Assembly: GCA_040772225.1 (NCBI GenBank)
Contig: JAXGYO010000002.1
Span: forward strand, 1,725,762 to 1,789,761
Length of the DNA stretch: 64,000 nt
Source of the DNA: Anaerolineae bacterium
Lineage (GTDB): Bacteria; Chloroflexota; Anaerolineae; UBA1429
Reading direction: 5' to 3'
Made by a program: the position numbers and the translations under genes. Every line of letters begins with the position of its first letter. The stretch's first letter is position 1. The notes below the pieces were generated by a model. The model was not told where the DNA came from. It worked only from the letters and a program-made list of their open reading frames with translations, and made no database searches. Of the stretch, positions 1 to 58,556 are shown in pieces.

Positions 1-40
1 GCCCCGTGGCGGGCGACCACCAAAGCCGAAACAATCCGCG

Positions 41-1191
41 CTACATCGCCTGCCGGTAAATCGCCTCTACATCATCCGCCGTCGTCACGCGCGGATTCCT
101 GCCAATCCCGGCCGACTTCATCGTATCGGCGATGAGATTGGGGAAATCCGCCTCAGTGACGCCACACGAGGCCAGGCCGTCGGGGATGCCGACAACCCGA
201 TTGAGCTCACGCACGCGCTCCACCGACGCCTCGGCGGCAGCGAGTCGCGTCATCCCGGTGGTATCAACACCCAGGGCCTCGGCCACGCGCGCAAAGCCTT
301 CGATGTCATAGGCCGCGTTAAAGGCCATCACATGGGGCAGCAGGATGGCGTTGGCAACGCCATGCGCCGTCCCGCACCAGCCGCTGACGGGATGCGACAT
401 AGAGTGGACGATCGTCAGGCCCGATTGGTTAAAGGCAATGCCCCCCTCCAGGCAAGCCATCATCATCCTCTCGCGTGCTGTTCGATTGCTGCCATCGTCG
501 ACAGCAACGGGAAGCCATTCGCCGATGAGGCGGACGGCGTCCAGCGCCAATGACCGTGTAAGGTCATACGCCCCCTTGCTGGTGACAGACTCGATCGCGT
601 GCGTCAGAGCATCCATTCCCGTCGCGGCGGTCATCCCCTTGGGAAGTGTCAGGGTCATCTCCGGGTCCACCAGAGCGCGCGTGGCAGCGCAGTTAGGGCC
701 CGAAAGGCCGAACTTGAAACGGCTATTGGGGTCCGTGAACACGATATTGTTCGTGACCTCGCTGGAGGTCCCGGCCGTAGTGGGGATGCAGATGCTGGGC
801 AGAGGAGCGACGGGCGGGTTCCTCCCCATATAGTCTTGCAGCCGGCCGCCATTGGTGGCCAGAAAGGCGACGCCTTTGGCCGTGTCCATGGGGCTGCCTC
901 CGCCGACGGCAACAACGCCATCCGCAGCAGACGCCTTCAGCAGTGCCAGGGCCTCTTCAACCATTGTGGTCTCTGGATTGGTGCCCACGCCATCATAGAT
1001 CTCGGCCGAGATGCCAGCGCTGGCCAGTGATGCGAGAACCCCATCCACAAGCCCGGCGCCACGCACACCCCGGTCGGTCACCACCAGCACTCGGGTCAGC
1101 CCCAAACCCTGGGCTTCCTCACCGGCCAGTGCGGCCACTCCCGCCCCATATGTCACAAAGGACGGCTGGCGAAACAGATATTTGTCCATTG
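41..1191 (-). CDS. Iron-containing (group III) alcohol dehydrogenase
   Basis: Long ORF with Fe-ADH motifs (GGGSPMDTAKG, glycine-rich NAD site). Start trimmed to MDKYLF, preceded by a GGAGG RBS on the minus strand. Confidence 0.85.
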
Positions 1192-1349: not shown

Positions 1350-1423
<74 letters not shown>

Positions 1424-1426
1424 TGA

Positions 1427-1460
1427 AAGCCTCCTGTAAACAGGGGGCTTTTCACTTTTG
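1427..1460 (+). terminator. Rho-independent terminator after tRNA-Val
   Basis: Hairpin AAGCCTCCTG-TAAA-CAGGGGGCTT followed by TTCACTTTTG. Confidence 0.5.
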
Positions 1461-1608
1461 TGAAATACTCATGCCAAAACCTCTGGTCAGAAGGCCCACT
1501 TGGTGCTATGCTGCCAGGTGTAAATGGCTCCAGCACAGCGCGCAGGTCGGCGAGCCGGTCATCACCTGCGACCGCTAACAGGGGCAGACGCCACACAAAG
1601 GCAGGCCA

Positions 1609-3294
1609 ATGAGACTATCTCGTCCGCTCTCAAGCTATGTTCGAATCACACAACTGTTCTCTCCCACAGTGCACTACGGTCTGGACTTGAGCGCCTATGT
1701 GGGCACACCGGTCTATGCTACCGTCGATGGAATCGCCTATGGCAGATTCGACGCCACAGGCTTTGGACGCTACGTGCGCATTGAGACGCCAGAGGTCAAA
1801 GTGTACAGCGCACATCTGGATACGATCATTGTGGGTGAGGGGCAACCGGTCAAACGCGGCGCGATCATCGGCTATAGCGGGAATACAGGCAACAGCACGG
1901 GCCCGCATCTGCATCTCGAGGTCCGGCGTAATGCCGGCTCACCCTTCAAGTACGGAGCGATCGACCCCTGGCCGCTGATCGATTGGGAGTCCGCGCCAAA
2001 GAGCCGGCGCATCACCGGCGTGCACCTGGGCAACGCCTGTATCCTGAGTGCCCTGGACCGGCGGGTCGTCTCGATGCTGCATCCTGGATGCGTCGTACTC
2101 CGGCCTGATTATGCCCTCGATAAACAGCCTGTGACTGTGGCTGACATCGCCTGGATCCTCTCCGTCGTTCCTGACTGCCACGTGATTCTGCGGCCTCAGG
2201 TCACCGCGCTGCTTTCCAGCAGCGATGCAGGCTGCCGCCAGTACATCTCCGCAGTGGTAGGTATGCTCGACGATTGGTTGCGGGTGGTTCCCGCCCGTCA
2301 GCTTCACATACAGCTCTGGAATGAACCGAATGTGCCCCCGGCATCAGGAGGCACCGGTTTTGGAGACACAGAGGCCGGTATGCTACGCCTGAACAGCATG
2401 TTCTCTGAAGGCTACTGGCGCATCAAGGAACGCGCTCCCGAGGTCCGTGTAGGGTTCCCGCCGCTGGCCCCGCGGTATCGTGACTGCTGGTTCCCCGGCG
2501 ATGCATCGGGCCGTTACTACTTGCACGGCACCTCAGGATGTCGCGGAACCGAGACCATGACAGCGAGCGACCGGAGTGCAGCTCTCTCCAGCGGCCCCTG
2601 TTTCGGAGCGCTCACTATGGCTGACGAAGTCTACGCGCACACATTCGTCCACAACCGCGATGGCGTGCTCTCTTGCTGGAATCACGCGGCGTACGGGCGC
2701 CGCTACGAGGCGCTGCGCTACTGGTGGCCGAACAAACCCATGTGGATCACCGAGTACGGCTACCCCAACAGGCAACTGCTGGAGCAAGCGGGCGCCAGCC
2801 AGGCGTTGCTCTCCCACGCGAACTACATGGTCAGTCAGAGCGCCTTTGTGGGGAGCGCGGCGCTCTGGACACTGGGAAACGACCCCACCTGGGGAGGAGA
2901 GATGTTCATCCAGGACGGGCGCCCTTCTACGATCATACGCGATCTCACACTGCTTCAGGGGGACGGTGTGCCCGCCCCACCCAAGGAGGTACCTCCCATG
3001 TCTGACGAGCAGATCGGTTCCTGGCTATCGGATTTCCTTCAGGATCATGTACTGCCCCTGAACTCTGATGCTGCGCTGTACAAGGCAGCCAAGTTAAAGA
3101 ACCCACGTCTGACGCCCGCCAGTGACGAGTGTCGCCCGGCAGAGCTGCCTATCAGCCTGCCAGATAGCCTGCCCGCCGACATCGTCTGCCAGGTCTTTCG
3201 GGATCCCCTGGATGATGCCTGGCAGGATATCGCCTGGACGCGCATCGGAGAGTGGGCGCCTTCACAGATCCACTGGATACGCCGCAGGAACTGA
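1609..3294 (+). CDS. M23 (LytM-type) metallopeptidase fused to a clan GH-A (GH5-like) glycoside hydrolase-like domain
   Basis: N-terminal HxxxD (HYGLD) and HxH (HLHLE) M23 motifs. C-terminal domain has WNEPN (acid/base) and ITEYG (nucleophile) motifs typical of GH5/clan GH-A. No N-terminal signal peptide. Confidence 0.7.
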   Translation: MRLSRPLSSYVRITQLFSPTVHYGLDLSAYVGTPVYATVDGIAYGRFDATGFGRYVRIETPEVKVYSAHLDTIIVGEGQPVKRGAIIGYSGNTGNSTGPHLHLEVRRNAGSPFKYGAIDPWPLIDWESAPKSRRITGVHLGNACILSALDRRVVSMLHPGCVVLRPDYALDKQPVTVADIAWILSVVPDCHVILRPQVTALLSSSDAGCRQYISAVVGMLDDWLRVVPARQLHIQLWNEPNVPPASGGTGFGDTEAGMLRLNSMFSEGYWRIKERAPEVRVGFPPLAPRYRDCWFPGDASGRYYLHGTSGCRGTETMTASDRSAALSSGPCFGALTMADEVYAHTFVHNRDGVLSCWNHAAYGRRYEALRYWWPNKPMWITEYGYPNRQLLEQAGASQALLSHANYMVSQSAFVGSAALWTLGNDPTWGGEMFIQDGRPSTIIRDLTLLQGDGVPAPPKEVPPMSDEQIGSWLSDFLQDHVLPLNSDAALYKAAKLKNPRLTPASDECRPAELPISLPDSLPADIVCQVFRDPLDDAWQDIAWTRIGEWAPSQIHWIRRRN

Positions 3295-3343
3295 GCCTGC
3301 GACTGTGCGCGGCGCTGGGGAAAGAGGCTCGAACTGCACCAAA

Positions 3344-3375
3344 CCGGCCCGAACGATAGTTATCGTTCGGGCCGG
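3344..3375. terminator. Bidirectional hairpin terminator between convergent genes
   Basis: Near-perfect 13-15 bp inverted repeat CCGGCCCGAACGATA/TATCGTTCGGGCCGG between the M23 gene end and the glnA end. Confidence 0.5.
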
Positions 3376-3396
3376 CAATGTGTACGATCCGCGGAG

Positions 3397-4728
<1,332 letters not shown>

Positions 4729-4781
4729 GTACCCTCCTCTTCATATACCGAATCTAGGTCACAGGATAGAACACTGCGACG

Positions 4782-4841
4782 CTGTGCACATCGTGCACAG
4801 GTACTCAAGCGCGCGACCTGTCATTTGTGCATCTTGCACAA
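4782..4841. promoter_or_regulatory. Two palindromic candidate operators upstream of glnA
   Basis: CTGTGCAC-ATC-GTGCACAG (4782-4800) and TTGTGCA-TCT-TGCACAA (4825-4841). Both are perfect inverted repeats sharing a GTGCA/TGCAC core, 54-113 bp upstream of the glnA start. Confidence 0.35.
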
Positions 4842-4850
4842 GCGCCGTCG

Positions 4851-6348
4851 CTAGGCGCCGAGAAAGTGGATCCGCAGCGCAACCTGCAGGGCGAGTCGCG
4901 TGTCTGCGCTATCCAGATCGAGGCCGATGATCTCGGAGATACGCTGCAGGCGATAGTTGAGCGTGTTGCGGTGTACATAGAGCCGGCGGGCAGTCTCGCT
5001 GGCATTGGAGTTCTGCTCGAAATACGCCCGGAGCGTGGCCACCAGCTCGGTGTTGTGCTCCCGGTCATACTCCACCAGCAGACCGAGCGTGTCACCGTAA
5101 AAGCGGCGCACTTCGGCCTGATCCCGCAGCCCAAGCAGCAAGCGGTAGAGACCGAGATCGGAGTAGAAAAGCGGCCCTGACTGATCCTTCATCCGCCGGC
5201 CCATCTTCTCACCTGCCAGAGCCTGGTGCACAGCCTCAGAAAGACCCCTGGCGTCGGGAGCCACCCGACTCACGGCAACACGATAACCACGGGCAATCAG
5301 AGGCTCCGCCGCCCTGGTGAGCATGACACGCAGCCGCTGATCGCTGCTCGAGGGCGATGCAGAGACCAGAAACAGAGACACATCCTGATACCCCAGGGCC
5401 AGAGCAGATACGCCCTCACGCCGCCCGCAAAAACAGAGATCGCTCTCGAAAGAGGTTGCCAACGCGCTGGCAGCGCCCACTGTCTCATCATCAGAGGCCA
5501 GAGCCAGCACAAGGTGCCTCCGCCCGGGCGTGACGTCATAGCCCTGTCGTGAAAGACGGGACAGGATGCTGTCCGCATCAGCCGAAGCAGACAGGAGATC
5601 AGAGACCAGGTCAGCCGCAAATTGATCCTCTGTCTCGCGCCGCACACAGGTCTGGATCATCTCGAGCGCGCAGACCTCAGCCGCCTGTGTCGCAGCCACG
5701 CGCAGCAGCGCCGGCGCCCGTTCGGCCGTGGCGACCTTGAGCGTACCCAGGGACTTGCCAGTGACGGCAACCGGGTAGGTGTGCTCGCTTTGGGACATGT
5801 GCCCGCCGTTTCGCGCACTCTGAATCAGTACGGTCCCTGCACCATCCACCAGACAGGCCTGCACATCGAACTCGTCAGCCAGTCGCTCGATCACGGCGAC
5901 TGTGCCTCGATCCGACAACAACTCCTGGTACTCCTGCCGCCAGCGAGCAGCGTACAAAGCCTCCTGCCCCTCGCGGTCAAGCAGCGTTCGCAAGGCTTCT
6001 CGCTCTAGGGCGCGCAGGTCGGTGTCTGCGGGCACAGCGAACAGCGGTAGCACCAGCTCGTCGGCGAGTCTGCACGCCTCCTCATCAGGGGCCTCATCGA
6101 TCACCAGGCCCGCCGCATCGGCACGAGCCAGCTCTCGCATCAGATACGACAGGGTCAACTGGGCATCCAGGCGCCTGGCAACCTCCGGACGAGCGATGGC
6201 CAGGTGCCCCCGATCCAGCTCCGGGAAGAGCGGGTAGGTGGCGTGCAATGCGGTGACCCACTCCACCTGGCGATCGAGTCCGCGCTCTCCCCCACAGGGG
6301 CGGCAATCCCCCAGAACCAGGTCCCAGATATCTCTGACAGTCACTTCC

Positions 6349-6368
<20 letters not shown>
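4851..6368 (-). CDS. PucR/CdaR-family transcriptional regulator
   Basis: C-terminal PucR-type HTH ([28 protein letters not shown]). Lies between glnA and carB on the same strand. Confidence 0.8.
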
Positions 6369-9553
<3,185 letters not shown>

Positions 9554-9570
<17 letters not shown>

Positions 9571-10786
9571 GAACGCCCTCTCTACTGGCAAGCGCATCTA
9601 CAAACCCCTTGAGCAGCTGGAGGCTGTCATGGGGGCCGGGGGAAGACTCGGGATGGTATTGCACGCTGGCGATAGGCAGGGTCCGGTGTCGGATCCCCTC
9701 GATGGTGTGATCAAACAGGTTCACGTGTGTGATCTCGTAGGGCAGTCCCCGCAGGCTCTCTGGCATTACCGCATAGTTGTGATTCTGGCTGGTGATCGAG
9801 ACGCGGTTGGATCTTACGTCCTGGACAGGATGGTTGCTGCCATGGTGCCCAAAGGGAAGCTTGAAGGTGCGCCCGCCTGCCGCCAGGCAGATGATCTGGT
9901 GCCCCAGACAGATCCCATAGAGCGGAACACGTCCCATGAGTTCCCTCACCGACAGGATGGTGGCCGTCGCCTGCTCAGGGTCTCCGGGTCCGTTAGAGAT
10001 CAAGACGCCATCCGGCGCAAGGGCGAGAATCGCCGAGGCCGAAGCATCCGCAGGCACGACGGTGGTTCGCGCACCAAAGCCGGCCAAAAGGCGGAGTATG
10101 TTCTCCTTGGCACCACAATCGATCACGACGACATGGGGAGCACTGCCAGTGGCGGCCAGGTCATCCTGCACCGCAGAGAGCCAGGCGCCCGCTACTGTCT
10201 CAAGCCACGCGTGGCGTTCGCTCGAGGTCACCTGAGCCACCGGCGCCAGCAGGCTCATGTCCGGCGCATCTCGCGCCATTCTGACCAGCCGCTCGGGGTC
10301 CAGGTCGATGCTGGAGAGCGCTCCTCGCATGACGCCGGCCTCGCGCAGTCTCAGGGTGAGCCGCCGCGTATCGATGCCGTCCAGCGCGGGGACACCGGCC
10401 TCGCGCAGCATGTCCGGCAGCGCCCGCTGTGCGCGCCAGTTACTGGGTCGAAGTGTGATACGTCTGGCGAGAACGGCCCGTACGTGGGGTATACGCGCCT
10501 CACCATCCTCATCATTGACACCCACGTTTCCAATATGCGGGCAGGTAAACACGACCATCTGCCCCCAGTAGGAGGGATCGGTAATGGTCTCCTGATAGCC
10601 GGTCATGCCCGTCACAAACACCACCTCGCCGACCCACTCACCCTGTGCGGCGAGCGAGCGCCCGGCGTAGATGCTGCCGTCCTCGAGCGCGAGCAACCCC
10701 GAGACAGCCTCGGACACGGGCTGTTCATCCGCGGAGGTCACGGGCTTGTTCGCACGATCAGCTGTACAGGCGGACTGGAATGTCAT
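9554..10786 (-). CDS. carA: Carbamoyl-phosphate synthase small subunit (glutamine amidotransferase)
   Basis: CarA blocks ([16 protein letters not shown]; GATase-I C-terminal region with catalytic Cys). Overlaps the carB start. Confidence 0.9.
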
Positions 10787-10830
10787 GCTTTTCGCATTTG
10801 CTCCATAGTCGGACAGGGTTTGAGTGTTGA

Positions 10831-11628
10831 TCAGTACGCATAGAGACGGCCATAGGGCCGCCGGGTGCGCGGATACAGCTTGAGAAACGAGCCGTCAAGC
10901 AGAGCATCGGGATCGCGACCGAAACAGGCCGCAAAGGCGACCACATACTGGCGGACTGTGACCCAGTCATCGGCGTCGAGTTCGGCGACACCCACTTCCT
11001 TACCGAGGAAGCGATCATCAAAGGGGCCGCGGAGATAGATCACGCCGCCGTGCATGCCAGTGCCGATATAGCGTGAGGGATGTATCTCGCCCGCTTCGAG
11101 ATTCGCGCCCAGCACCAGGATAACGCCGCCGGCCATGTACTCGCCGAGGAAATGTTGTGCCGTCCCTCCGATGACAATCGCAGGGCGCTGTTCCCCATAC
11201 TCTTTCATGTGGATGCCCACGCGATAGCCTGCGTTTCCATTCACCAGAATGGTGCCTCCACGCATCGAGTGCCCAACGATGTCGCCAGCGGAGCCATGGA
11301 TCGCCAGCAACCCGCTGTTCATCGTGTTGCCGCAACCGTCCTGCGCGTCGCCCAGCACTTCCACCAGCGGTCCATCCATAAAGGCACCGAGATCGTTGCC
11401 CGGAACGCCCTCAATCACCATACTCACAGGCGCCTTCAGGTTCGTCCCCAGATAGCGCTGGCCCGATACAGCGTGCAGGGATAGGCGCCGGGCGCCCCGG
11501 TCCACCAGGCTGGCCAGCTCTGCATTCAGGGCCCTGTAGGGCACCCCGCGCGCATCGATGTCGATCGTCTCTGTTGAACAAATTGAACGGGCCGATTCCA
11601 GCGAGACGAGCAGGCGCAGATCAGCCAT
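10831..11628 (-). CDS. Glutamate synthase GXGXG domain protein (GltB3-like, archaeal-type split GOGAT)
   Basis: Repeated G-x-G-x-G beta-helix motifs (GTAQHFLGEYMAGGVILVLGAN). Confidence 0.8.
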   Translation of the reverse strand: MADLRLLVSLESARSICSTETIDIDARGVPYRALNAELASLVDRGARRLSLHAVSGQRYLGTNLKAPVSMVIEGVPGNDLGAFMDGPLVEVLGDAQDGCGNTMNSGLLAIHGSAGDIVGHSMRGGTILVNGNAGYRVGIHMKEYGEQRPAIVIGGTAQHFLGEYMAGGVILVLGANLEAGEIHPSRYIGTGMHGGVIYLRGPFDDRFLGKEVGVAELDADDWVTVRQYVVAFAACFGRDPDALLDGSFLKLYPRTRRPYGRLYAY

Positions 11629-12781
11629 AGCTGGGCTCCTTCACAGTACGTAGAGCTTTCCGGCTGGCGGTGCGCGGCGCTACCGGCATCTCGCCAAGCC
11701 TTCCCACCACGGCCTCGCCTCCGTAGGGTGTCCACACGGCGTCAACATCTTTCTCAACCAGGTGGATAGGGGCGATCTCTGATGACACATAAAGAATCGA
11801 GCCGGCGGTGGCCGCAACCAGGGGACGCAGCCGGATGCGATCGCCGAGACCGATCATCTCGCCTGTCCTGCCGATGATGACGGTAAAAGGCCCATTCATG
11901 AGCAAGGGCGCATACGTCTGACGGATCGCCCGGTAGAGGTGTTGCTCTCTCTCTGGCAGCATCTCGATCTCGGACCAGAGAGGGCTGGCCATCACCAGCG
12001 ACGCCTGTTGCGGCGTGAGGCCGTGGCGGCGCATCAGCAGGTCGCAGGCATAGGCCATGACCTCGGTATCGGTGCGCATGGTGCAGTGATAGCCCTTCAT
12101 CTCGAGATACCGCCGGTTGGTGCCATAGGATGAGATCTCACCGTTGTGCACAACCGACCAGTCCAGCAGGCCAAAGGGATGGGCGCCTCCCCACCAACCG
12201 GGCGTGTTGGTCGGGAAACGGTTGTGAGCGGTCCACATGTAACCGGCATAGTTCGCCACTCGGTAGAATTCTGCTATCTGCTGCGGGTGCCCCACACCCT
12301 TAAAGATGCCCAGGTTCTTACCACTGGAGTAGATATAGGCGCCCTGCATATGCGTATTGGCATACATCACATGGTGCACGACCCACTCGTCAGCGGTGAA
12401 CGAGCCATCATCTGGCAGCCTGGGAGCGCAGAAAAAGCGCCAGACGATCGGGGCATCCTCGATACCGGCCACAGGCCAATGGGGCACCGGCTCCTGGTGA
12501 ACGATGGAGAACTGCCGGGCCAGGTATTGCTCCATCTCCTGCCGGTCCAGATCAGACCGGCACATGACGTGGAGCGCGTACATCTCCGCCAGGTCCGGGT
12601 AACAGCCGTAGACAGCATAGCCGGCACCGAGGCCATTGCCGCGCTCCTGCATACTGTCCAGGGCCTGGACGGCTGCCTGGCCATCGTGCGTCCACCCAGA
12701 GGTATCTATGAACCCGAACAGGCCGCATGCGCTCGAGACACGATCGTCGTTGTAGCGATTCTCAATATGAGCCCAGGCCAT
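11621..12781 (-). CDS. Class II (Ntn) glutamine amidotransferase domain protein (GltB1-like)
   Basis: N-terminal Cys nucleophile context (SSACGLFGF) and purF/GltS-type GATase-2 blocks. Confidence 0.85.
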   Translation of the reverse strand: MAWAHIENRYNDDRVSSACGLFGFIDTSGWTHDGQAAVQALDSMQERGNGLGAGYAVYGCYPDLAEMYALHVMCRSDLDRQEMEQYLARQFSIVHQEPVPHWPVAGIEDAPIVWRFFCAPRLPDDGSFTADEWVVHHVMYANTHMQGAYIYSSGKNLGIFKGVGHPQQIAEFYRVANYAGYMWTAHNRFPTNTPGWWGGAHPFGLLDWSVVHNGEISSYGTNRRYLEMKGYHCTMRTDTEVMAYACDLLMRRHGLTPQQASLVMASPLWSEIEMLPEREQHLYRAIRQTYAPLLMNGPFTVIIGRTGEMIGLGDRIRLRPLVAATAGSILYVSSEIAPIHLVEKDVDAVWTPYGGEAVVGRLGEMPVAPRTASRKALRTVKEPSYG

Positions 12782-12789
12782 ATATCCCC

Positions 12790-14070
12790 CTATACCTCAA
12801 TCCCTGCGCCCTGGACCACATGCTTGCGGTACTGCTCGGGCAATGAGAGCAGACTTACATGTCCATCCAGCAGGCGCTGGCGATGCTGGCCGACGTCGAT
12901 CTTGTTCCGGATCAGGCCGGTGTAGATTCCTGCGCGGTCGATCTCACCGACGAGGATTGCCCCGATCAGTCGTCCATCGCGCATCACGAGCCGCTTGTAC
13001 GTGTTGCTGCGCTCGTCGATCTGGGCCAGCACGTCGTGTCCCTCCTCGGGAGCATTGCCGTTCCCGATGGACATAGCCGGCACTCCCATCACCTCAACAG
13101 TATTCATGGCCACGCCGCCCGGGTCAGGGCGAGACACACCGACCATGTGCGCGCCAGCGATCGCCCCCTGGCGGTAGGCGTTGGGCCAGATCGCTACCGT
13201 ACGGTTCATGTCCACAACCAGATCGTAGGCCTCGGCAACATCTCCAGCGGCATAGATGTCGGGATCAGAAGTGCGCATGTACGCATCGACGGAGACCCCC
13301 CGGTTGACCTGCAGGCCGGCTGCACTGGCGAGGCTCGCATTGGGCCGCACTCCGATCCCAAAGACCACTGCCTCGCAGTCCACGATGGTGCCATCCTTGA
13401 GCAACGCAGCCGAGACGCGGCAGTCGCCATCGCCTCGAATCTCCGTGACCGTATTCTCAGTTCGCACACTGACGCCTTGAGCCTCCAGCAGCCGCTTGAT
13501 CATGGCGGAGGCCGTGCCATCCAGCGCCGCAGCCAGGATAGTGGGCGCCAGCTCCACCATCGTCACCTGAACACCGCGCTTGATCAGGGCATCGGTGGCC
13601 TTGATGCCGATCATCCCACCGCCGACCACCACTGCACGGTGTTCGCCCTGGCCTTCCAGATAGCGGGCCAGGCGTGTCGCATCCCGTTGACGGGTGAAGG
13701 TGAACACGCCTTCCAGATCAAGGCCAGGGACAGGAGGCACAATCGGCTGCCCACCGGTGCTGATCAGCAAGCGATCGTAGGCGATCACCTTGCCCGTGGC
13801 TGTCGTGACCTGATGCGTCGCCGGGTCGATAGCGACGACGGGATCATCGGTGATCAGGGACACGTGATGTCGCGTGTAAAAGTCGGCGGGACGGTAGGCC
13901 AGTCGAGAGCGGTCGATCTCGCCCGCAAGGTAATGTGACAGCATCGGCCGCGAGTAGATCATGGGACCCTCTTCCGAGATCACCATGATCTCTGCCCCCT
14001 GATCGTGCTCCCGGATCGACTCTATCGCGCCAACAGATGTGGCCGAGTTCCCAATGATGACGATTCTCAT
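12790..14070 (-). CDS. FAD-dependent pyridine nucleotide-disulfide oxidoreductase (NirB/NADH-oxidase-like), putative electron-donor subunit
   Basis: Two Rossmann dinucleotide motifs (MRIVIIGNSATSVG; RAVVVGGGMIGIKATD). Embedded in the split GOGAT cluster. Confidence 0.75.
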   Translation of the reverse strand: MRIVIIGNSATSVGAIESIREHDQGAEIMVISEEGPMIYSRPMLSHYLAGEIDRSRLAYRPADFYTRHHVSLITDDPVVAIDPATHQVTTATGKVIAYDRLLISTGGQPIVPPVPGLDLEGVFTFTRQRDATRLARYLEGQGEHRAVVVGGGMIGIKATDALIKRGVQVTMVELAPTILAAALDGTASAMIKRLLEAQGVSVRTENTVTEIRGDGDCRVSAALLKDGTIVDCEAVVFGIGVRPNASLASAAGLQVNRGVSVDAYMRTSDPDIYAAGDVAEAYDLVVDMNRTVAIWPNAYRQGAIAGAHMVGVSRPDPGGVAMNTVEVMGVPAMSIGNGNAPEEGHDVLAQIDERSNTYKRLVMRDGRLIGAILVGEIDRAGIYTGLIRNKIDVGQHRQRLLDGHVSLLSLPEQYRKHVVQGAGIEV

Positions 14071-14531
14071 GCCGCACCCCCGTTGCGCTCAGGGACCTCT
14101 TCATAGGTGAGGGCCCCATTCGGGCAGTGGTCGACACAGGCGGGCACCTCCGCCCCATAGCAGAGATCGCACTTGCTCGCGATCCGGGTGCCAAGCGTGT
14201 TCTGTCGTATCGCCCCGGCCGGACACACCATGATGCACATCCAGCAGCCCACGCACCTGCTCTCGTCGCAGACGACGGCGCCAGTACGCTCATCGCGATG
14301 CATGGCTCCAGAGATGCAGGCCTCCAGGCAGGCCGGCTCGTCACACTGGCGACACTGCAGAGCAAAGGACACCGGGCCGCTCTCCTCAACGATCAGACGG
14401 GGCATCAGCTCGGTCCGCTCGCGACGGTAAGCCTTGATGATGTCGTGTGACTTGGAGTGTTGGACCAGGCAGTGTACCTCGCACAGGCGGCAGCCGATGC
14501 AGTGCTCTTCATGAATGACGATGCGCTTCAT
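14067..14531 (-). CDS. 4Fe-4S dicluster ferredoxin-domain protein
   Basis: Multiple CxxCxxC(xxx)C clusters (CIGCRLCEVHC, CRQCDEPAC, CVGCWMCIMVC). Confidence 0.8.
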   Translation of the reverse strand: MKRIVIHEEHCIGCRLCEVHCLVQHSKSHDIIKAYRRERTELMPRLIVEESGPVSFALQCRQCDEPACLEACISGAMHRDERTGAVVCDESRCVGCWMCIMVCPAGAIRQNTLGTRIASKCDLCYGAEVPACVDHCPNGALTYEEVPERNGGAA

Positions 14532-14540
14532 GGCGACCCC

Positions 14541-16049
14541 CTATAGCCCTGCGGCTCGGATGCCGAGGGTGTCCAGCTCAACCTGGTTCAGCCCGACGCC
14601 GCGCAGATGATCGCGGTTGCCCCGCAGACTCTCGATCGCGTTGACGCCCATGCCTCCCATCATCTCCTTGATCTCCAGGCTCCAGGCACGCAACAGGTTG
14701 GTGAGCCGTTGCGCCCCGATATCCGGGTTCAGCCGCTTGGTAAGGTAAGGGTCCTGTGTGGCGATACCCCAGTTGCACTTGCCCGTGTAGCAGTTCTGGC
14801 ACAGGTGGCAGCCCATCGAAACCAGGGCGGATGTCGCGATATAGACCGCGTCGGCGCCGAGGGCAATCGCCTTGACCACATCCGCGCTGCTGCGGATGCT
14901 GCCGGCAGCGACGAGCGAGGCGCGATGACGGATGCCCTCATCTCGCAACCGCTGGTCCACTGCTGCCAGAGCAAGCTCGATAGGGATGCCGACGTTGTTG
15001 CGCACCTGCGTCGGGGCGGCGCCTGTCCCGCCCCGCAGGCCATCGATGGCGACGATATCGGCGCCCGCTCGCACGATCCCGCTGGCGATGGGTGCGATGT
15101 TGTGAACCGCCGCTACCTTGACGCTGACCGGCTTTTCATAGCCGGTGGCCTCTTTGAGTGCATAGATGAGCTGGCGCAGGTCCTCGATCGAGTAGATGTC
15201 ATGATGGGGAGCCGGGGAGAGCGCATCGGTGCCCACCGGGATCATCCGCGTTGCGGAGATATCGGGGGTCACCTTCTCCCCAGGCAAGTGTCCACCAATA
15301 CCGGGCTTGGCCCCCTGCCCGATCTTGATCTCGAGCGCGGCGACGGCATTGAGATAGTCGAGATGCACGCCGAACCTTCCGGAGGCGACCTGAGCGATGG
15401 TGTTGCCACCGTAACCATAGAGCGCCGGATGGAGCCCGCCTTCACCAGTGTTATAGAACGTTCCCGCCTCCTGTGACGCCCGGGCAAGGGACTCGCAGGC
15501 GTTAAAGCTGATCGAGCCATAGGACATGGCCGAGAACATGATCGGGACCTCGAGCCGGAGCAGCGGCGCCAGTTGCGTCTCTGTGGGCTCTCCATCCGCA
15601 CCCCACTCCAGACGCTCCGGTTTGGCCCCCAGGTAGGTGACCAGCTCCATCGGCTCCCGCATGGGGTCGATCGATGGGTTGGTCACCTGGCTAGCGTTAA
15701 GCAGCATGTGGTCCCAGTACACGCGATAGGCTTGATCACAGCCCATACCCGTGAGGAGCATGCCGCCACTCTCAGCCTGCCGGTAGATGTTTCGGAGGGC
15801 CTGGTTCGACCAGTTGGCATGGGGCCGGAACTCGAGGGGATTCTGCCGCACCGTCAGGGCGTGAGTCGGGCAGAGCGTCACACACCTGTGGCAACCGACG
15901 CAATTCGCATCCTCGCTATAGACACAGTCGTCCTCGATGTCATAGACATGGACGTCGTTGGCACATTGCCGGACACACACCTGACAGGAGATGCACCGGC
16001 TTTGGTCGCGCTCGATGACAAAGGCGGGCGTCGTGTAGGAGAGCGCCAT
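14541..16049 (-). CDS. Glutamate synthase FMN-binding domain protein (GltB2-like) with N-terminal 4Fe-4S ferredoxin domain
   Basis: N-terminal Cys clusters, then GOGAT FMN/central-domain blocks (FSAMSYGSIS, GEGGLHP, GQGAKPG). Confidence 0.9.
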   Translation of the reverse strand: MALSYTTPAFVIERDQSRCISCQVCVRQCANDVHVYDIEDDCVYSEDANCVGCHRCVTLCPTHALTVRQNPLEFRPHANWSNQALRNIYRQAESGGMLLTGMGCDQAYRVYWDHMLLNASQVTNPSIDPMREPMELVTYLGAKPERLEWGADGEPTETQLAPLLRLEVPIMFSAMSYGSISFNACESLARASQEAGTFYNTGEGGLHPALYGYGGNTIAQVASGRFGVHLDYLNAVAALEIKIGQGAKPGIGGHLPGEKVTPDISATRMIPVGTDALSPAPHHDIYSIEDLRQLIYALKEATGYEKPVSVKVAAVHNIAPIASGIVRAGADIVAIDGLRGGTGAAPTQVRNNVGIPIELALAAVDQRLRDEGIRHRASLVAAGSIRSSADVVKAIALGADAVYIATSALVSMGCHLCQNCYTGKCNWGIATQDPYLTKRLNPDIGAQRLTNLLRAWSLEIKEMMGGMGVNAIESLRGNRDHLRGVGLNQVELDTLGIRAAGL

Positions 16050-16134
16050 GGCTTACCTCAACTGGAATAAAACCGCCGCCCCCTGAGGAGCGGCTTCGCT
16101 GCACGCGGTGGGTCATCAACATCGACCCGATCAC

Positions 16135-16153
16135 CTGTAGGCTTATCTTACAG
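16135..16153. promoter_or_regulatory. Palindrome upstream of split-GOGAT operon
   Basis: CTGTAGGCTTATCTTACAG (TGTA-N9-TACA), about 90 bp upstream of the gltB2-like start. A TGCAC-GCG-GTG partial half-site lies nearby. Confidence 0.2.
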
Positions 16154-16285
16154 GGACCGGTCCGGGGCCACATCGACCGAGTGGAGGATTTCGAGGATGC
16201 CGAACGGAGGATTTAGAGCGCCATATACAGCGAGAGCGGCCCTACCCACCGGGGTGGACCGCTCCAACGGTGCAGATGAAAAGCA

Positions 16286-17815
16286 TCAGGTCGTGACCGT
16301 GTCGCGGACCCCTGCCATCAACAGACCGATCTGCTCACGCGTAGCTGTCGGACCGTCGACCGTGGCGATAATCTCACCCTCGTAGATCACGGCGATGCGG
16401 TCCGAAAGGGTCAAGATCTCGTCCAGTTCAGCCGAGACCAATAACACGGCAACGCCTCGATCGCGTTGCGCGACAATCTGCTGATGAATGAACTCAATCG
16501 AACCCACGTCTACGCCACGCGTGGGTTGGCTGGCTACCAGCAAGGATATCTCCCGTCCGAGCTCACGGGCAACCACCATCTTTTGCTGGTTTCCACCTGA
16601 CAGCGAACCTGCAGCCGTATCAACATCGGGTGTGCGAATGTCAAACTGCTCGACCAGCCTCTCGGCATGCGCATAGCAGGCGTCATCATCGCGAATGCCA
16701 CGATTAGCAAAGGGTGCCTGGAAATAGGTATTGAGCACGAGATTGTCAGCCACCGAATACGAAGAGACCATCCCATAGCGGTGCCGGTCTTCAGGGATAT
16801 AGGCCATGCCCAGATTGGTGCGGTTGCGAGGAGTCGAGCGCGTGATATCGATACCGTTGAAGATGACCGTCCCCGACAGCGCCCTTCGCAGGCCGGTAAT
16901 CGACTCGACCAATTCAGTCTGGCCGTTCCCCTGCACGCCCGCTACGCCCAGTATTTCGCCGGCACGGACCTGCAGGCTGACATTACGCAGGGCCACTCCG
17001 CTGCGCTCGACCTGCGTTGAGAGCCCGCGCACATCCAACACCACCCGCTCCGGATGGGCGGGCCCTTTGGGCACCTGCAGGATCACCTCGCGCCCCACCA
17101 TCATCTCGGCAAGCGACGCTTGCGTGGACTCTTCAGGCGTCGCCTCGCCGACCACGCGTCCGGCCCGCATCGCCACGATACGATGGGAGACATCGAGCAC
17201 CTCGCGCAGCTTGTGCGTGATAAAGATGATGGAATGCCCTGCGGAAGCGAGATCGCGCATCACCCTGAACAGATCTCGGATCTCCTGAGGGGTGAGGACC
17301 GCCGTCGGCTCGTCGAGTATCAGGATGCGGGCATTACGATAGAGCGCCTTGAGAATCTCGACGCGCTGCTGCACACCCACGGGAAGCTGCTCTATAACCG
17401 CATCGGGGTCGACGACCAGACCATACTGCTGGGACAACTCGATGACGCGCTTACGTCCAGCATCCAGATCCAGAAACGGAGTGTGTCCGTGGGTGATCTC
17501 CGCTCCGAGCAGGATATTCTCGGTCACCGTCATCGGCTGCACAAGCTGAAAGTGCTGGTGCACCATGCCGATTCCCAGTGCGATCGCATCACGGGGCGAA
17601 GCGACTCTTACAGGCTCACCATCGACAAAGAGCTCGCCCTCGTCCGGGTGATAGAGACCATAGACGATATTCATCAGCGTGCTTTTACCTGCGCCATTCT
17701 CACCCAGGAGCGCCAGGATCTCCCCTTTGTGCAGCGCCAGACTCACGCGATCGTTCGCCACGACGCCTGGAAAGATCTTGGTGATATTGCACGCCTCGAG
17801 GACAATGTCCGTCAT
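16286..17815 (-). CDS. ABC transporter ATP-binding protein (tandem ATPase domains, sugar/nucleoside type)
   Basis: Two Walker A/B plus signature sets. N-terminal GENGAGKST. Confidence 0.9.
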   Translation of the reverse strand: MTDIVLEACNITKIFPGVVANDRVSLALHKGEILALLGENGAGKSTLMNIVYGLYHPDEGELFVDGEPVRVASPRDAIALGIGMVHQHFQLVQPMTVTENILLGAEITHGHTPFLDLDAGRKRVIELSQQYGLVVDPDAVIEQLPVGVQQRVEILKALYRNARILILDEPTAVLTPQEIRDLFRVMRDLASAGHSIIFITHKLREVLDVSHRIVAMRAGRVVGEATPEESTQASLAEMMVGREVILQVPKGPAHPERVVLDVRGLSTQVERSGVALRNVSLQVRAGEILGVAGVQGNGQTELVESITGLRRALSGTVIFNGIDITRSTPRNRTNLGMAYIPEDRHRYGMVSSYSVADNLVLNTYFQAPFANRGIRDDDACYAHAERLVEQFDIRTPDVDTAAGSLSGGNQQKMVVARELGREISLLVASQPTRGVDVGSIEFIHQQIVAQRDRGVAVLLVSAELDEILTLSDRIAVIYEGEIIATVDGPTATREQIGLLMAGVRDTVTT

Positions 17816-17818
17816 CTG

Positions 17819-18880
17819 TCACTCCGTCTCATAGACCTCGCCCTCGGCTGCCGGGGCCCGTGTCCGCCCAATAACGCCTACGAGGACGACGATTGTGGTA
17901 ACATAGGGCAGCATGCTGATGAAAAAACGTGGGATTCTGGTCACGCCCGACAGGAGCAGCTGGTTCTGAAGCGCCTGCGCATAGCCGAAAAGCGTCGAGG
18001 CTCCCAGAGCGCCCAGCGGGTTCCAGTTTCCGAATATCATCGCCGCCAGTGAAATAAAACCGCGTCCAGCGGTCATCCCCTCTTTGAACTGGCCCACGGC
18101 CTCCAGCACAAGAAAAGCACCGCCGAGCGCGGCAAGAGCCCCACCGAGGGTCGTGTTGATGTATCGCCACCGGTTCACGTTGATTCCCATGGTGTCCGCC
18201 GCGCGCGGATGCTCACCGATAGCCCGTGTGCGCAGTCCCCACCGGCTGCGAAAGAGCAGGAATTGCACAATAAAGACCATCGCGAGTGCTAGATAGGTCA
18301 GAAAGCCATTGGTGAACAGGATCTCGCCAAAAACGGGAATCCGTGACAGTAGCGGGATACGGATATCGGCGAACTTACCCCTGCTAAGCCAGTCCGGGTT
18401 AAAGAGATAGGTGCTCAGTCCCGTCGCGAGCACGATCAGCGCCGTTCCGCTGATGATCTGGTTCATCCGAAAACGGATGCTGAGCAAGGCGTGCAGATAC
18501 CCCATAGCCGCCCCCACCAAAATGGCGGACAGCGTGGCGAGAAAAAGGCTCACAGGAAGCGGCAGGCCGCCGGTAAAGGCCTTGACAACAAAAGCGCCAA
18601 AGGCGCCTGCCAGCATCATGCCCTCGATCCCGATGTTGATGATGCCCGAGCGCTCGCACAGGATACCAGACAGGGCACCAAAAATGAGGGGAACCGCTGC
18701 GCGCAGTGTGTAGCGAAGGACCCCTTTTCCCACAAAGATGCCCAACACACCGTTGCCAAGCGGCGTCGTCTCTGCAAGGATCGCCAGAATCGCAACGATG
18801 ACTATCAGTGCCCAGCTGAACCACCGGCTGGTCGGCTTGATGCGGGCGGCTCTGATTCCAGTGTTCTCTCGAACCGCCAT
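17819..18880 (-). CDS. ABC transporter permease
   Basis: Multi-TM hydrophobic protein in an operon with the ATPase and BMP substrate-binding protein. Confidence 0.85.
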   Translation of the reverse strand: MAVRENTGIRAARIKPTSRWFSWALIVIVAILAILAETTPLGNGVLGIFVGKGVLRYTLRAAVPLIFGALSGILCERSGIINIGIEGMMLAGAFGAFVVKAFTGGLPLPVSLFLATLSAILVGAAMGYLHALLSIRFRMNQIISGTALIVLATGLSTYLFNPDWLSRGKFADIRIPLLSRIPVFGEILFTNGFLTYLALAMVFIVQFLLFRSRWGLRTRAIGEHPRAADTMGINVNRWRYINTTLGGALAALGGAFLVLEAVGQFKEGMTAGRGFISLAAMIFGNWNPLGALGASTLFGYAQALQNQLLLSGVTRIPRFFISMLPYVTTIVVLVGVIGRTRAPAAEGEVYETE

Positions 18881-18881
18881 T

Positions 18882-20045
18882 CTAACCTCCCCAGCCCGTA
18901 GCGAGCTGTGTGTCCGAGGTATCCTCGCCGGTGCGCCGGCCGCGGATGCGATAGATCACCCGCACGATCTCCGGAGCCGCCACGAGTATGAGTACCAGGG
19001 CCTGAACCACCTGGATGATCTCGCTGCGAACACCAGAGTCAAACTGCATTTTGGCAGCGCCGCCATACAGCGCGCCCATGAACACCGAGGACAACACGAC
19101 GCCAAAGGGCTGCGTACCACCCAATAGGGCCACCGTGATCCCCTCAAACCCGGAGCTGCCGGTAAACTCGGGGGCATAGCGATGGTACAGCCCAAGCGTC
19201 TCCACCGTACCGGCCAAGCCTGCCAGTCCTCCGGCGATGGCCATGGTGAGCACAATAGTCCAGTTGACCCGAATGCCAGCGTAACGCGCCGCACTGAGAT
19301 TGGCACCAACCGTGCGCACTTCAAAGCCAAAGGTACTCTTGCGCAATATCCACCACACGATGACCGCCGCCACCAGCGCAACCACGAGGCCCCAATGGAC
19401 ATCGGTAAACACCCCGGGGAAGAATTCGGGCAGGATGGCTGTGGGCAGCACCTCCTTTGTCTGGGAGATACCCCGCACCGCTGCGACGGGATCTGATAGT
19501 GGCCCCGGTTGCTGTCCTTCAGTGCCGCCGGCGTAGATCAACCAGCTCACGAATAGCGAGGCAATATAGTTCAGCATGATGGTGGTGATCACCTCATGCG
19601 CCCCGCGCCATACCTTGAGCAACCCTGGGATCGCCCCCCAGAGAGCACCTCCGGCCAGGCCGGCCAGCAGCGCCAGAGGGAGATGGATGTATACGGGAAG
19701 CCCCTCCAGGCTGACCCCAACAGCAACCGAGGCGGCCGTACCCATCAGATACTGCCCGGAGGCGCCGATGTTGAACAGGCCGGCCTTGAAGGCAAAAGCG
19801 ACCGAAAGTCCGGTGAGGATAAATGGGGTCGCGGTACGCAGGGTCCGAGAGATCGCACCAACGCTACCAAATGCACCCTGCAGCAGGCCTGCATAGGCCG
19901 CAAGCGGGTTCTCCCCCGATAGGAGCATGATCACGGCGCCCACGGCAAAAGCCGTAAACAGGGCAAGCAAGGGCATCAGCAGGGGATGGGTGATTCGCGT
20001 GAACCAGCGGGAGCGGTCGTGTGGCTGATCGGCCGGGTCACCCAT
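18882..20045 (-). CDS. ABC transporter permease
   Basis: Multi-TM protein, adjacent and co-oriented with the second permease. Confidence 0.85.
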   Translation of the reverse strand: MGDPADQPHDRSRWFTRITHPLLMPLLALFTAFAVGAVIMLLSGENPLAAYAGLLQGAFGSVGAISRTLRTATPFILTGLSVAFAFKAGLFNIGASGQYLMGTAASVAVGVSLEGLPVYIHLPLALLAGLAGGALWGAIPGLLKVWRGAHEVITTIMLNYIASLFVSWLIYAGGTEGQQPGPLSDPVAAVRGISQTKEVLPTAILPEFFPGVFTDVHWGLVVALVAAVIVWWILRKSTFGFEVRTVGANLSAARYAGIRVNWTIVLTMAIAGGLAGLAGTVETLGLYHRYAPEFTGSSGFEGITVALLGGTQPFGVVLSSVFMGALYGGAAKMQFDSGVRSEIIQVVQALVLILVAAPEIVRVIYRIRGRRTGEDTSDTQLATGWGG

Positions 20046-20137
20046 GGCAACTCCAGTCTACTTGAAACATCCATACGCATCGAGGCGGCAACGCTGCAGA
20101 GCATCCCGGACCTCGAGCCGGGTAAGGAATAGACATA

Positions 20138-20164
20138 CAATGGGGAGGCTTAGCCTCCCCATTG
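20138..20164 (-). other. Intra-operon hairpin between substrate-binding-protein gene and permease gene
   Basis: 12-bp perfect stem CAATGGGGAGGC-TTA-GCCTCCCCATTG. Confidence 0.35.
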
Positions 20165-20176
20165 TGTTGAGCCGAT

Positions 20177-21190: not shown

Positions 21191-21446
21191 CTTTCTCTCC
21201 TCCATGCTTCATCTCTACCAGAGTCCCTGGCACGCCAATGCCACCTTACCCATCGGGTGACCTGGCGAGTGAAGATTAGCACGGGCAGCCAGAGTCTGCA
21301 AGCAGCAGCCCGCTCCCTGCACCCGCTCGGAAGACACCGTGCAAGCCAGGAGACCATTGAACGTCGGAGACAACTGGATGTGCCTGGGGCCGAAAACGCA
21401 AATGACCGCCACCCCAAAGGGACGACGGTCACATGACTGGCATTTG

Positions 21447-21530
21447 TGCCCCTGACTGGACTCGAACCAGTACGCCCTAAACGAGCACAGGCCCTCAACC
21501 TGCTGCGTATGCCAATTCCGCCACAGGGGC
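21447..21530 (-). tRNA. tRNA-Leu (anticodon GAG)
   Basis: Reverse complement gives GCCCCTG..GCGGAATTGGCATACGC..anticodon loop TTGAGGG..long variable arm..T-arm ACTGG-TTCGAGT-CCAGT..CAGGGGC-A. Type II tRNA. Confidence 0.85.
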
Positions 21531-58437: not shown

Positions 58438-58556
58438 CTTTGCCTCCAAGGCCGCCGCACAGAACGCAGGTTCGTGTACACTTAAAGTATACACGATGCT
58501 CAGATGCGCAACAAGGCCTTTCCATCCGCAGTTCTTACCGAGTCCCATGTGAAACA

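Follow-up and report, generated by a model that had tools for sequence, protein, structure and literature searches.

Introduction

Modular phage endolysins, such as Lysin A of the mycobacteriophages, combine a peptidase, a second catalytic domain and a C-terminal tail, and have no signal peptide. In Lysin A, the peptidase is N-terminal, the central domain is an amidase or a glycosidase, and the C-terminal domain binds the cell wall. Such genes are found in the company of tail genes, holin-like genes and integrase or terminase genes, with their domains either fused or split. A chromosomal counterpart is the autolysin LytA of Streptococcus pneumoniae, which has phage-lysin relatives and joins an Amidase_2 catalytic domain to wall-targeting choline-binding repeats. 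LytA lacks a secretion motif, is ~95% cytoplasmic, is released by lysis and reaches the wall via lysis or membrane damage (PMC3322828). As for the glycosidases that act on peptidoglycan, a 2019 review aiming at all known cell-wall glycosidase domains catalogues only GH3, GH73, GH22, GH24 and GH25, and no family of clan GH-A (PMC6403190).

The gene described here lies in a 64,000-nucleotide stretch of DNA from an Anaerolineae bacterium, hereafter the window. It encodes a 561-aa protein in which an M23 endopeptidase is followed by a GH-A-like barrel and an alpha+beta tail. This signal-less layout is, from the sequence, that of a phage endolysin, with a tail that would serve in binding. The protein departs from the modular phage endolysins in that its central domain is a GH-A-like barrel rather than a GH19, GH25, transglycosylase or amidase domain, and in that it is encoded on the chromosome, without holin or phage neighbours. 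It shares with LytA the chromosomal location, the phage-lysin relatives, the lack of a secretion motif and the combination of catalysis with wall targeting, the latter putative in the window protein, whereas the domains themselves are different. We consider it likely that the gene is a domesticated phage endolysin, which now serves as a signal-less, LytA-like autolysin.

A three-domain, endolysin-like protein beside tRNA-Val

The features of the locus are as follows (window coordinates).

1350..1423, + strand: tRNA-Val(cac), found with ARAGORN; conserved left-hand neighbour of the lysin gene in Anaerolineales
1425..1462, + strand: terminator-like hairpin and T-run after tRNA-Val, a pattern match from a consensus scan
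1609..3294, + strand: lysin coding sequence, a complete open reading frame with an ATG start, 561 aa
1609..1983, + strand: M23 (LytM-type) metallopeptidase domain, aa 1-125 (Pfam match at aa 21-109)
1996..2958, + strand: predicted (beta/alpha)8 barrel, aa 130-450, of an apparently unclassified clan-GH-A-like family
2317..2331, + strand: WNEPN motif, aa 237-241, just after beta4, with E239 as the putative acid/base
2746..2760, + strand: ITEYG motif, aa 380-384, on beta7, with E382 as the putative nucleophile
2962..3294, + strand: C-terminal alpha+beta tail of ~110 aa, aa 452-561, a putative wall-binding or targeting domain
21446..21530, - strand: tRNA-Leu(gag), immediate right-hand neighbour of the lysin gene in other Anaerolineales

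The open reading frame and its ATG start are present exactly as the first-pass annotation had them. That annotation had also reported intact M23 motifs (HxxxD, HxH) fused to a clan-GH-A-type barrel in one polypeptide, and this holds: Pfam Peptidase_M23 (PF01551) matches with E=1.5e-21 (76.8 bits, cut-off 28.7), and the barrel carries both catalytic-Glu motifs. The zinc and catalytic residues H22, D26, H69, H100 and H102, which include the intact H22-x3-D26 and H100-x-H102 motifs, are invariant in 13-14 of the 14 clade members. PHROG families of endolysins, peptidases and tape-measure proteins match the same domain (E 1e-15 to 1e-22), and the BFVD matches, in which M23 dominates, are phage M23 lysins and tape-measure proteins. 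By sequence model and motifs, the domain is thus a member of peptidase family M23. Lysostaphin, LytM and the phage M23 lysins have the Pfam match and the intact motifs in common with it; the window domain differs from them in standing at the extreme N-terminus, with neither pro-region nor signal peptide, and in being fused to the barrel.

The absence of a secretion signal, also noted in the first pass, is borne out. No in-frame start exists upstream of the ATG, since the frame is closed by a TAA 10 codons before it and offers no other start in that interval, which rules out a signal peptide from an earlier in-frame start. The N-terminus contains no hydrophobic segment, and all homologues begin with MRL(G/S)RP. 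The hairpin between the tRNA and the gene is a consensus-scan pattern match, whose 12-bp stem contains 6 GC pairs and runs into a T-rich tail. The lysin gene is probably driven by its own promoter. At the other end of the protein, the tail (aa 452-561) has no assignable fold family; it most likely brings the enzyme to the wall.

The barrel and its place among glycoside hydrolases

In the predicted structure, from which the barrel fold is taken, beta4 comprises residues 232-235 and is followed by WNEPN, while beta7 comprises residues 378-384 and carries E382; the loops at aa 295-317 and 347-364 are of low confidence. The modelled barrel therefore has the marks of clan GH-A, namely a (beta/alpha)8 fold, a Glu after beta4 in an N-E-P motif and a Glu on beta7. 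In an alignment of 50 diverse representatives of the family, E382 is invariant (50/50), N238 and E239 are kept in 48 and N241 in 49, and the whole constellation of R195, N238, E239, H344, Y346, E382 and W420 is kept in 48-50 members. Fold and motifs together suggest that the barrel is a glycosidase.

Its sequence, however, matches none of the models searched. Pfam gave no match at E<=10, whether for the window barrel by itself or for 23 members of its family, and PHROGs and NCBIfam gave none for aa 126-561. Searches of the PDB with the same residues, by phmmer and by profile, returned sub-threshold matches only (GH128-type 6uax, E=0.05; GH39, E=0.14-0.7), which fall at the catalytic motifs. 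BFVD offered nothing structurally close to the barrel among viral proteins apart from some with the generic labels "GH5 domain" or "glycosyl hydrolase". The "GH5-like" label given in the first pass, which would correspond to Pfam Cellulase (PF00150), was thus abandoned, as no GH model of Pfam matches even at E<=10; the placement of the domain in clan GH-A stands on the fold and the two Glu motifs, and the domain can be assigned neither to GH5 nor to any other sequence-defined GH family. Because no Pfam, NCBIfam, PHROGs or PDB sequence model matches, the barrel looks like an unclassified GH-A-like family.

The barrel was compared with GH39 (such as 5jvk), GH164, GH5, GH30 and PslG. It shares 8-15% sequence identity with these enzymes and none of the family HMMs matches it; it is set apart from them by its own highly conserved insertion after beta5 (PLTxGNRDxWFxGDxxGxYYxHGxxGC) and by domain partners that are peptidoglycan hydrolases. 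To our knowledge, such partners have not been reported for GH-A families. Literature searches on endolysins with GH5, clan GH-A or TIM-barrel domains, on new GH families and on Chloroflexi phage endolysins turned up no description of the module. In a soil-virome CAZyme preprint, viral GH5 appears only as a characterised endomannanase and among carbon-degradation annotations, not in connection with lysis cassettes.

Relatives in phage lysis cassettes

An exhaustive profile search recovered 133 relatives with endolysin-type architectures. The barrel is present in 22 IMG/VR loci, and in 26 phage or prophage loci it lies in lysis cassettes, after tail genes and beside holin-like ORFs, an integrase or a terminase. 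In 21 of these 26, an M23 or Amidase_2 domain is fused to the barrel or encoded next to it, both split and fused forms being seen; in the set of 50 representatives, its partners are Amidase_2 (12), M23 (7) and SpoIID (1). Six loci illustrate these contexts.

L008: tail fibre, amidase endolysin, barrel, integrase
L032: tape measure, Dit, further ORFs, then an M23-barrel fusion that is 50% identical
L031: barrel after a Sipho_Gp37 tail protein
L030: holin-like ORF, barrel, small terminase
L006: barrel adjoining a serine integrase and repressors
L041: full protein with M23, barrel and the same tail, then two small TM proteins

Holin-like ORFs also flank the barrel gene in L009, L012, L013, L015 and L026-28, so that these loci, together with L008, L030-32 and L041, have the lysis-cassette setting of phage endolysins. 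In the remaining five of the 26 loci (L013, L014, L016, L030 and L031), no M23 or amidase partner was detected; the barrel could act there as the sole lysin, or lysins of other types could have gone unseen. The first-pass annotation had set a phage explanation aside for want of flanking phage genes. Their absence around the window gene is confirmed, and the relatives, which do sit in phage lysis cassettes, remove the objection.

A fixed chromosomal locus under purifying selection

The barrel-bearing chromosomal lysin occurs in only 8 GTDB species, all of them Anaerolineales or Anaerolineae. Its position is shared by at least 8 species-level genomes, all of which have an intact reading frame; identity among them is 57-94%. 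tRNA-Val(cac) lies upstream of the orthologue in L001, L004 and L034-L039, and the order tRNA-Val, lysin gene, tRNA-Leu is a conserved backbone across the Anaerolineales clade. In the window, a block of ~18 kb displaces tRNA-Leu(gag) from the lysin gene; beyond this tRNA, the order PlsX, p228, PMT_2, HNH, MiaB, RodZ is exactly that of L001.

Comparison of the window gene with its 94% identical orthologue in L033 gives a dN/dS of 0.064 at a dS of 0.43, and the lysin gene is a real gene. The value is low in each part of the protein (M23, 0.035; barrel, 0.065; tail, 0.09). In a neighbour-joining tree, which carries no support values, the chromosomal sequences form a single monophyletic group, nested among those from phages. 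Capture from phage to host would account for this nesting, with transfer from host to phage retained as the alternative. Because neither the flanks of the window gene nor the syntenic genomes contain a holin or phage gene, the gene is filed as endolysin-derived and not as an active phage endolysin. It is of the LytA type in being chromosomal, vertically inherited, under purifying selection, related to phage lysins and devoid of a secretion motif.

Alternative explanations

Two other readings bear on what the barrel does. It might be an accessory lysin for a wall-linked secondary polysaccharide, a sheath or an exopolysaccharide of Chloroflexota, in a role analogous to that of mycobacteriophage LysB, while the M23 or amidase domain handles peptidoglycan; the origin would still be a phage lysin. 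This is possible, if on balance doubtful: in dual-domain endolysins, a peptidase or amidase is often coupled to a glycosidase that acts on peptidoglycan, and in the five partner-less loci no other lysin can be recognised near the holin-like or terminase genes, so that the barrel would have to breach peptidoglycan alone. The chromosomal barrel might also be no enzyme at all, having turned into a pseudo-enzyme module that binds carbohydrate or provides targeting for the M23 peptidase. Catalytic residues have indeed been lost in three chromosomal lineages, P0008 (R195S, N238S, H344D, E382R and W420Y), P0009 (E239Q) and P0014 (Y346H and E382Q), in which the M23 residues are intact and the proteins full length; the window copy has Y346F, and the substitutions recur in independent assemblies. 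Barrel catalysis may therefore be dispensable in the host, as far as these sequences indicate. We nonetheless find a pseudo-enzyme improbable for the window copy, which keeps R195, N238, E239, H344, E382 and W420 and whose barrel is under selection as strong as that on the rest of the lysin. Moreover, a Tyr-to-Phe change at the equivalent of position 346 usually weakens rather than abolishes GH-A enzymes, as seen in GH5 mutagenesis.

The remaining readings dispense with a domesticated lysin. A gene directly beside tRNA-Val, isolated as a single phage-type gene and lacking a holin, could be the inert relic of a prophage that decayed at a tRNA integration site and left nothing of use to the host; such an inert relic is very improbable in view of the shared position, the intact frames and the dN/dS described above. 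The first-pass annotation had favoured a lineage-specific family of envelope glycan hydrolases with three paralogs in the window, a family that would have been invented in the host. ORF 51338-54295(-) does contain a genuine PslG-like GH-A-type domain (E=8e-19 to PslG), fused to Wzy_C, and ORF 57010-58557(-) carries the motifs WNEPG and VVTEAG. Neither, however, has detectable homology to the barrel (hhalign probability 3.6% for each; BLASTP E>0.2), so both were rejected as paralogs and no lineage-specific paralogous family can be drawn from them. Since the 133 relatives have endolysin-type architectures and the barrel is abundant in phage lysis cassettes, we give a host-invented family very little credence. 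Finally, the missing signal peptide would be explained if the protein were a cytoplasmic enzyme of muropeptide recycling, a pathway that includes a cytoplasmic Amidase_2 enzyme (AmpD) and the TIM-barrel enzyme NagZ (PMC6403190). Such a role is scarcely credible given relatives that accompany holins in phage lysis cassettes and the absence of recycling genes adjoining the lysin gene. Nor are we aware of any M23 enzyme that works in the cytoplasm.

A model for a probable domesticated lysin

Altogether, a domesticated endolysin suggests the following model. An ancestor of one group of Anaerolineales (Chloroflexota) would have captured a phage endolysin and retained it as a lone gene on the chromosome, flanked by tRNA-Val(cac) and tRNA-Leu(gag). 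At the N-terminus, the M23 zinc endopeptidase would cleave the peptide bridges of peptidoglycan. The central barrel, with E239 as acid/base and E382 as nucleophile, most likely cleaves a beta-linked wall glycan, the leading candidate being the peptidoglycan backbone. This substrate would be unprecedented, because the published catalogue of peptidoglycan glycosidases holds no clan GH-A family (PMC6403190). The C-terminal tail would most likely direct the lysin to the wall. In phages, the barrel-bearing module would be released by the adjacent holins. Having neither holin nor secretion signal, the chromosomal lysin is most likely held in the cytoplasm and would gain access to the wall only through a breach of the membrane, whether caused by stress, by lysis of neighbouring cells or by a holin acting in trans. 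It is this route, the one documented for LytA, that would make it a LytA-type autolysin.

Significance

A GH-A-type barrel that recurs among the lysis genes of phages, joined to M23 or Amidase_2 or encoded next to them, has so far been invisible to Pfam, PHROGs and NCBIfam. We advance only tentatively the broader proposal that the barrel founds a new clan GH-A family acting on the glycan strand of peptidoglycan, the first GH-A muramidase or glucosaminidase, and that phages of Chloroflexota-like hosts use it widely as the glycosidase arm of their endolysins. One three-domain lysin would then have been domesticated in Anaerolineales as an autolysin that works without holin or signal peptide and serves in programmed lysis or the breakage of filaments, its glycosidase arm decaying to a binding module in some lineages. 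If the barrel is active on the wall, the lysin repertoire would gain a new enzymatically active domain, viral "unknown" genes that carry it could be re-annotated as lysis genes and not as auxiliary carbohydrate metabolism, and the poorly known cell envelope of Anaerolineae would become more accessible. The chromosomal clade offers a clean natural experiment in endolysin domestication, in which a lone gene at a fixed locus is under strong purifying selection and one of two catalytic centres has been lost in particular lineages.

A signal-less M23 lysin gene beside tRNA-Val

The lysin gene and its tRNA-Val(cac) neighbour lie where the first-pass annotation placed them, and the relevant features of the window are the following.

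1350-1423 (+), tRNA-Val(cac)
1425-1452, terminator-like hairpin 3' of tRNA-Val(cac)
1609-3294 (+), lysin CDS, ATG start, 561 aa
~3300-21450, ~18-kb block between the lysin gene and tRNA-Leu(gag)
3397-4728 (-), glnA, within the block
4851-6368 (-), PucR-like regulator, within the block
21446-21530 (-), tRNA-Leu(gag), start of the conserved right-hand backbone
21635-22648, PlsX, conserved right-hand backbone
51338-54295 (-), 985-aa membrane protein, PslG-like N-terminal domain and Wzy_C / O-antigen-ligase-like polytopic domain
57010-58557 (-), 515-aa ORF, N-terminal hydrophobic segment, motifs WNEPG and VVTEAG

Peptidase_M23 is the sole Pfam domain of the lysin protein (aa 21-109, E=1.5e-21, 76.8 bits for a cut-off of 28.7 bits). 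Its motifs H22-x3-D26 and H100-x-H102 are complete, as had been claimed, and H69 is present as well. The reported absence of a secretion signal also holds. An in-frame TAA precedes the ATG by ten codons and the interval holds no other start, no hydrophobic segment was found at the N-terminus, and all homologues begin with MRL(G/S)RP; the protein therefore lacks a signal peptide, and none could be supplied by an upstream start.

An unclassified clan GH-A-like barrel

For the remainder of the protein (aa 126-561), neither Pfam, with the threshold relaxed to E<=10, nor PHROGs, NCBIfam or the PDB sequences gave a match. An AlphaFold2 model built from 14 homologues (pLDDT 74, pTM 0.66) comprises an M23 beta-domain, a barrel region of eight alternating beta/alpha units (aa 136-448; core pLDDT 80-97, with low-confidence loops at 295-317 and 347-364) and a small alpha+beta tail (aa 466-560). 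The model puts WNEPN (aa 237-241) after beta4 and E382 of ITEYG on beta7, the '4/7' arrangement of clan GH-A, which supports a clan GH-A-like barrel. R195, N238, E239, N241, H344, Y346, E382 and W420 are kept in 48-50 of 50 diverse members, a residue set characteristic of GH5-type active sites in clan GH-A. At the level of the clan, the earlier 'GH5-like (clan GH-A)' label is supported; its GH5-like part is not, and as far as sequence goes, the family is unclassified.

A family-specific and very highly conserved insertion follows beta5 (aa 287-331, nt ~2467-2601). It reads PLTxGNRDxWFxGDxxGxYYxHGxxGC...GPC, is modelled with low confidence and contains near-invariant C311 and C331; it may serve as a loop for substrate binding, or provide a disulphide or metal site. 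The tail also occurs C-terminal to Amidase_2 lysins (P0063, P0080) and to stand-alone barrels, and is most simply a putative wall-binding domain whose fold has no family match.

A word-indexed search recovered only ~20 clusters, all of them ~560-aa M23+barrel proteins of Anaerolineae or Chloroflexota MAGs. When 1.84 billion representatives were searched exhaustively with a profile, 133 relatives were recovered, 47 with E<1e-30. Among the 50 members, nearly all partner domains are peptidoglycan hydrolases (Amidase_2 in 12/50, M23 in 7/50, SpoIID in 1/50). PKD domains occur in a few members, and one member is fused to a STAND NTPase. In the 1015-aa metagenomic protein P0056, the barrel is preceded by an nSTAND1 domain (STAND NTPase, E=2e-32) at the N-terminus and followed by a PKD domain at the C-terminus, which suggests effector use within a conflict- or immunity-type protein.

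Two further window ORFs had been proposed as paralogous GH-A domains, a relationship that profile comparison does not bear out. Searches of Pfam, NCBIfam and the PDB sequences returned nothing for ORF 57010-58557(-), and no similarity between it and the lysin barrel could be detected (hhalign probability 3.6%, BLASTP E>0.2); possibly it, too, is an unclassified GH-A-like protein, in this case secreted. In ORF 51338-54295(-), the N-terminal domain matches PslG 4zn2 (E=8e-19), with weak GH42 and GH35 matches, and is unrelated to the lysin barrel at the profile level. In the hhalign alignment, D-R-P occupies the position equivalent to N-E-P, so its acid/base Glu may be missing. At most, the three share an ancient clan-level fold.

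The barrel in phage lysis cassettes

The first-pass annotation had set aside a phage explanation, mistakenly: relatives of the barrel occur in phage lysis cassettes. From IMG/VR, 22 viral loci with the barrel were recovered, and individual phage-type loci (L handles) are organised as follows.

L008: tail fibre, two small ORFs, amidase endolysin, barrel gene, phosphoesterase, integrase; the endolysin and barrel genes overlap by 26 nt
L032: 516-aa M23+barrel fusion, 50% identical to the window barrel, ending a siphovirus tail module (tape measure, Dit, further ORFs)
L031: Sipho_Gp37 tail protein, then the barrel
L030: 108-aa holin-like protein (three hydrophobic segments, basic C-terminus) abutting the barrel gene; small terminase next
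L006 and L007: M23+barrel fusions adjoining a large serine integrase, an exonuclease and cI/Cro-like repressors
L041: complete M23+barrel protein with the same tail as in the window, then two small membrane proteins

Small TM ORFs also adjoin the barrel gene in L009, L012, L013, L015 and L026-28. Across 26 phage-type loci, scored with HMMs built in this analysis and confirmed with Pfam and PHROGs, the barrel is fused to Amidase_2 in 12/26 and to M23 in 5/26; a separate M23 gene lies just upstream in 3/26 and a separate amidase in 1/26, and neither domain was detected within the fetched flanks of the remaining 5/26. The occurrence of the same domain pair in split and fused forms is classical evidence that two activities work together.

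Three loci have additional peculiarities. The 4-kb L041 contig carries a second, partial copy of the barrel (207 aa, P0018/P0019 type, 36-659(+)) ~700 nt 5' of the full gene, which could be what is left of tandem lysins or an artefact of chimeric assembly. In the prophage-like element L006, a GT87-family glycosyltransferase (5461-6591(-)) that may modify a host surface glycan directly adjoins the lysin and serine integrase. L007 (GCA_041663065.1 contig, 6.9 kb), in which a serine recombinase neighbours the lysin, has been binned under 'Candidatus Paceibacterota'; its G+C is an Anaerolineales-like 62.6%, and it probably represents a fragment of a phage or prophage placed in the wrong bin.

Proposed mechanism and substrate

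In the phage, a holin would open the membrane, M23 or Amidase_2 would cleave peptide stems or bridges, and the barrel would cleave a beta-linked glycan of the wall. The peptidoglycan backbone is the favoured substrate because the barrel fills the slot of the muramidase or glucosaminidase in other two-activity lysins, and because it is the only recognisable lysin in five loci. A secondary polysaccharide linked to the wall is a less probable but serious alternative. In either case, the peptidoglycan glycosidases catalogued in a 2019 review belong to GH3, GH73, GH22, GH24 and GH25, with no clan GH-A family (PMC6403190).

Probable domestication in Anaerolineales

The lysin gene is present in only 8 of 185,579 species genomes, all Anaerolineales, Anaerolineae or Chloroflexota MAGs (56-94% identity), and all eight have a common locus: tRNA-Val(cac)(+), lysin gene, tRNA-Leu(gag)(-), PlsX, a 228-aa protein, and PMT_2 onward. 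tRNA-Leu(gag) is the immediate neighbour of the lysin gene in most other Anaerolineales; the ~18-kb block, common to the window, L033 and L034, is an insertion in their lineage. As previously noted for the window copy, no phage genes flank it, and neither phage genes nor holins were found in any flank of the eight-genome locus.

A neighbour-joining barrel tree, computed without support values, unites the chromosomal copies in one clade, with phage-context M23 fusions as its sister; both groups fall inside a larger set of IMG/VR and phage-context sequences. The phage-like contigs nearest this clade have a G+C of 0.61-0.63, the same as Anaerolineales genomes. In the simplest history, with the direction of transfer inferred, the window lysin is a domesticated phage endolysin, captured once and then vertically inherited.

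Modular endolysins and autolysins are a well-known kind. No description of the central catalytic module or of its long-term single-gene domestication in Anaerolineales was found in the sequence libraries and literature searched, and both appear undescribed. The original interpretation is thus partly supported: it keeps its domains and its missing signal, and loses its family assignment, paralogy and dismissal of phage origin. The host copy has neither signal nor holin, and its closest functional analogue is pneumococcal LytA: ~95% of LytA is in the cytoplasm, it carries no secretion motif, and lysis or membrane damage sets it free (PMC3322828).

Compared with its 94%-identical L033 orthologue, the lysin gene has dN=0.0275, dS=0.428 and dN/dS=0.064 (M23 0.035, barrel 0.065, tail 0.09), and all three parts are under constraint. 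It evolves faster than its Fe-ADH neighbour (67-72% vs 84-86% identity, same genome pairs). The M23 residues are intact across the chromosomal clade, with the sole exception of P0016 (H69Q, D71S). Barrel catalytic positions are replaced in three chromosomal lineages, P0008 (R195S, N238S, H344D, E382R, W420Y), P0009 (E239Q) and P0014 (Y346H, E382Q), and the P0009 and P0014 replacements are seen again in independent assemblies. The window barrel keeps every catalytic position except for Y346F; it is probably still active, possibly weakened. The losses suggest that, after domestication, some hosts can dispense with the glycosidase centre, with the domain itself retained.
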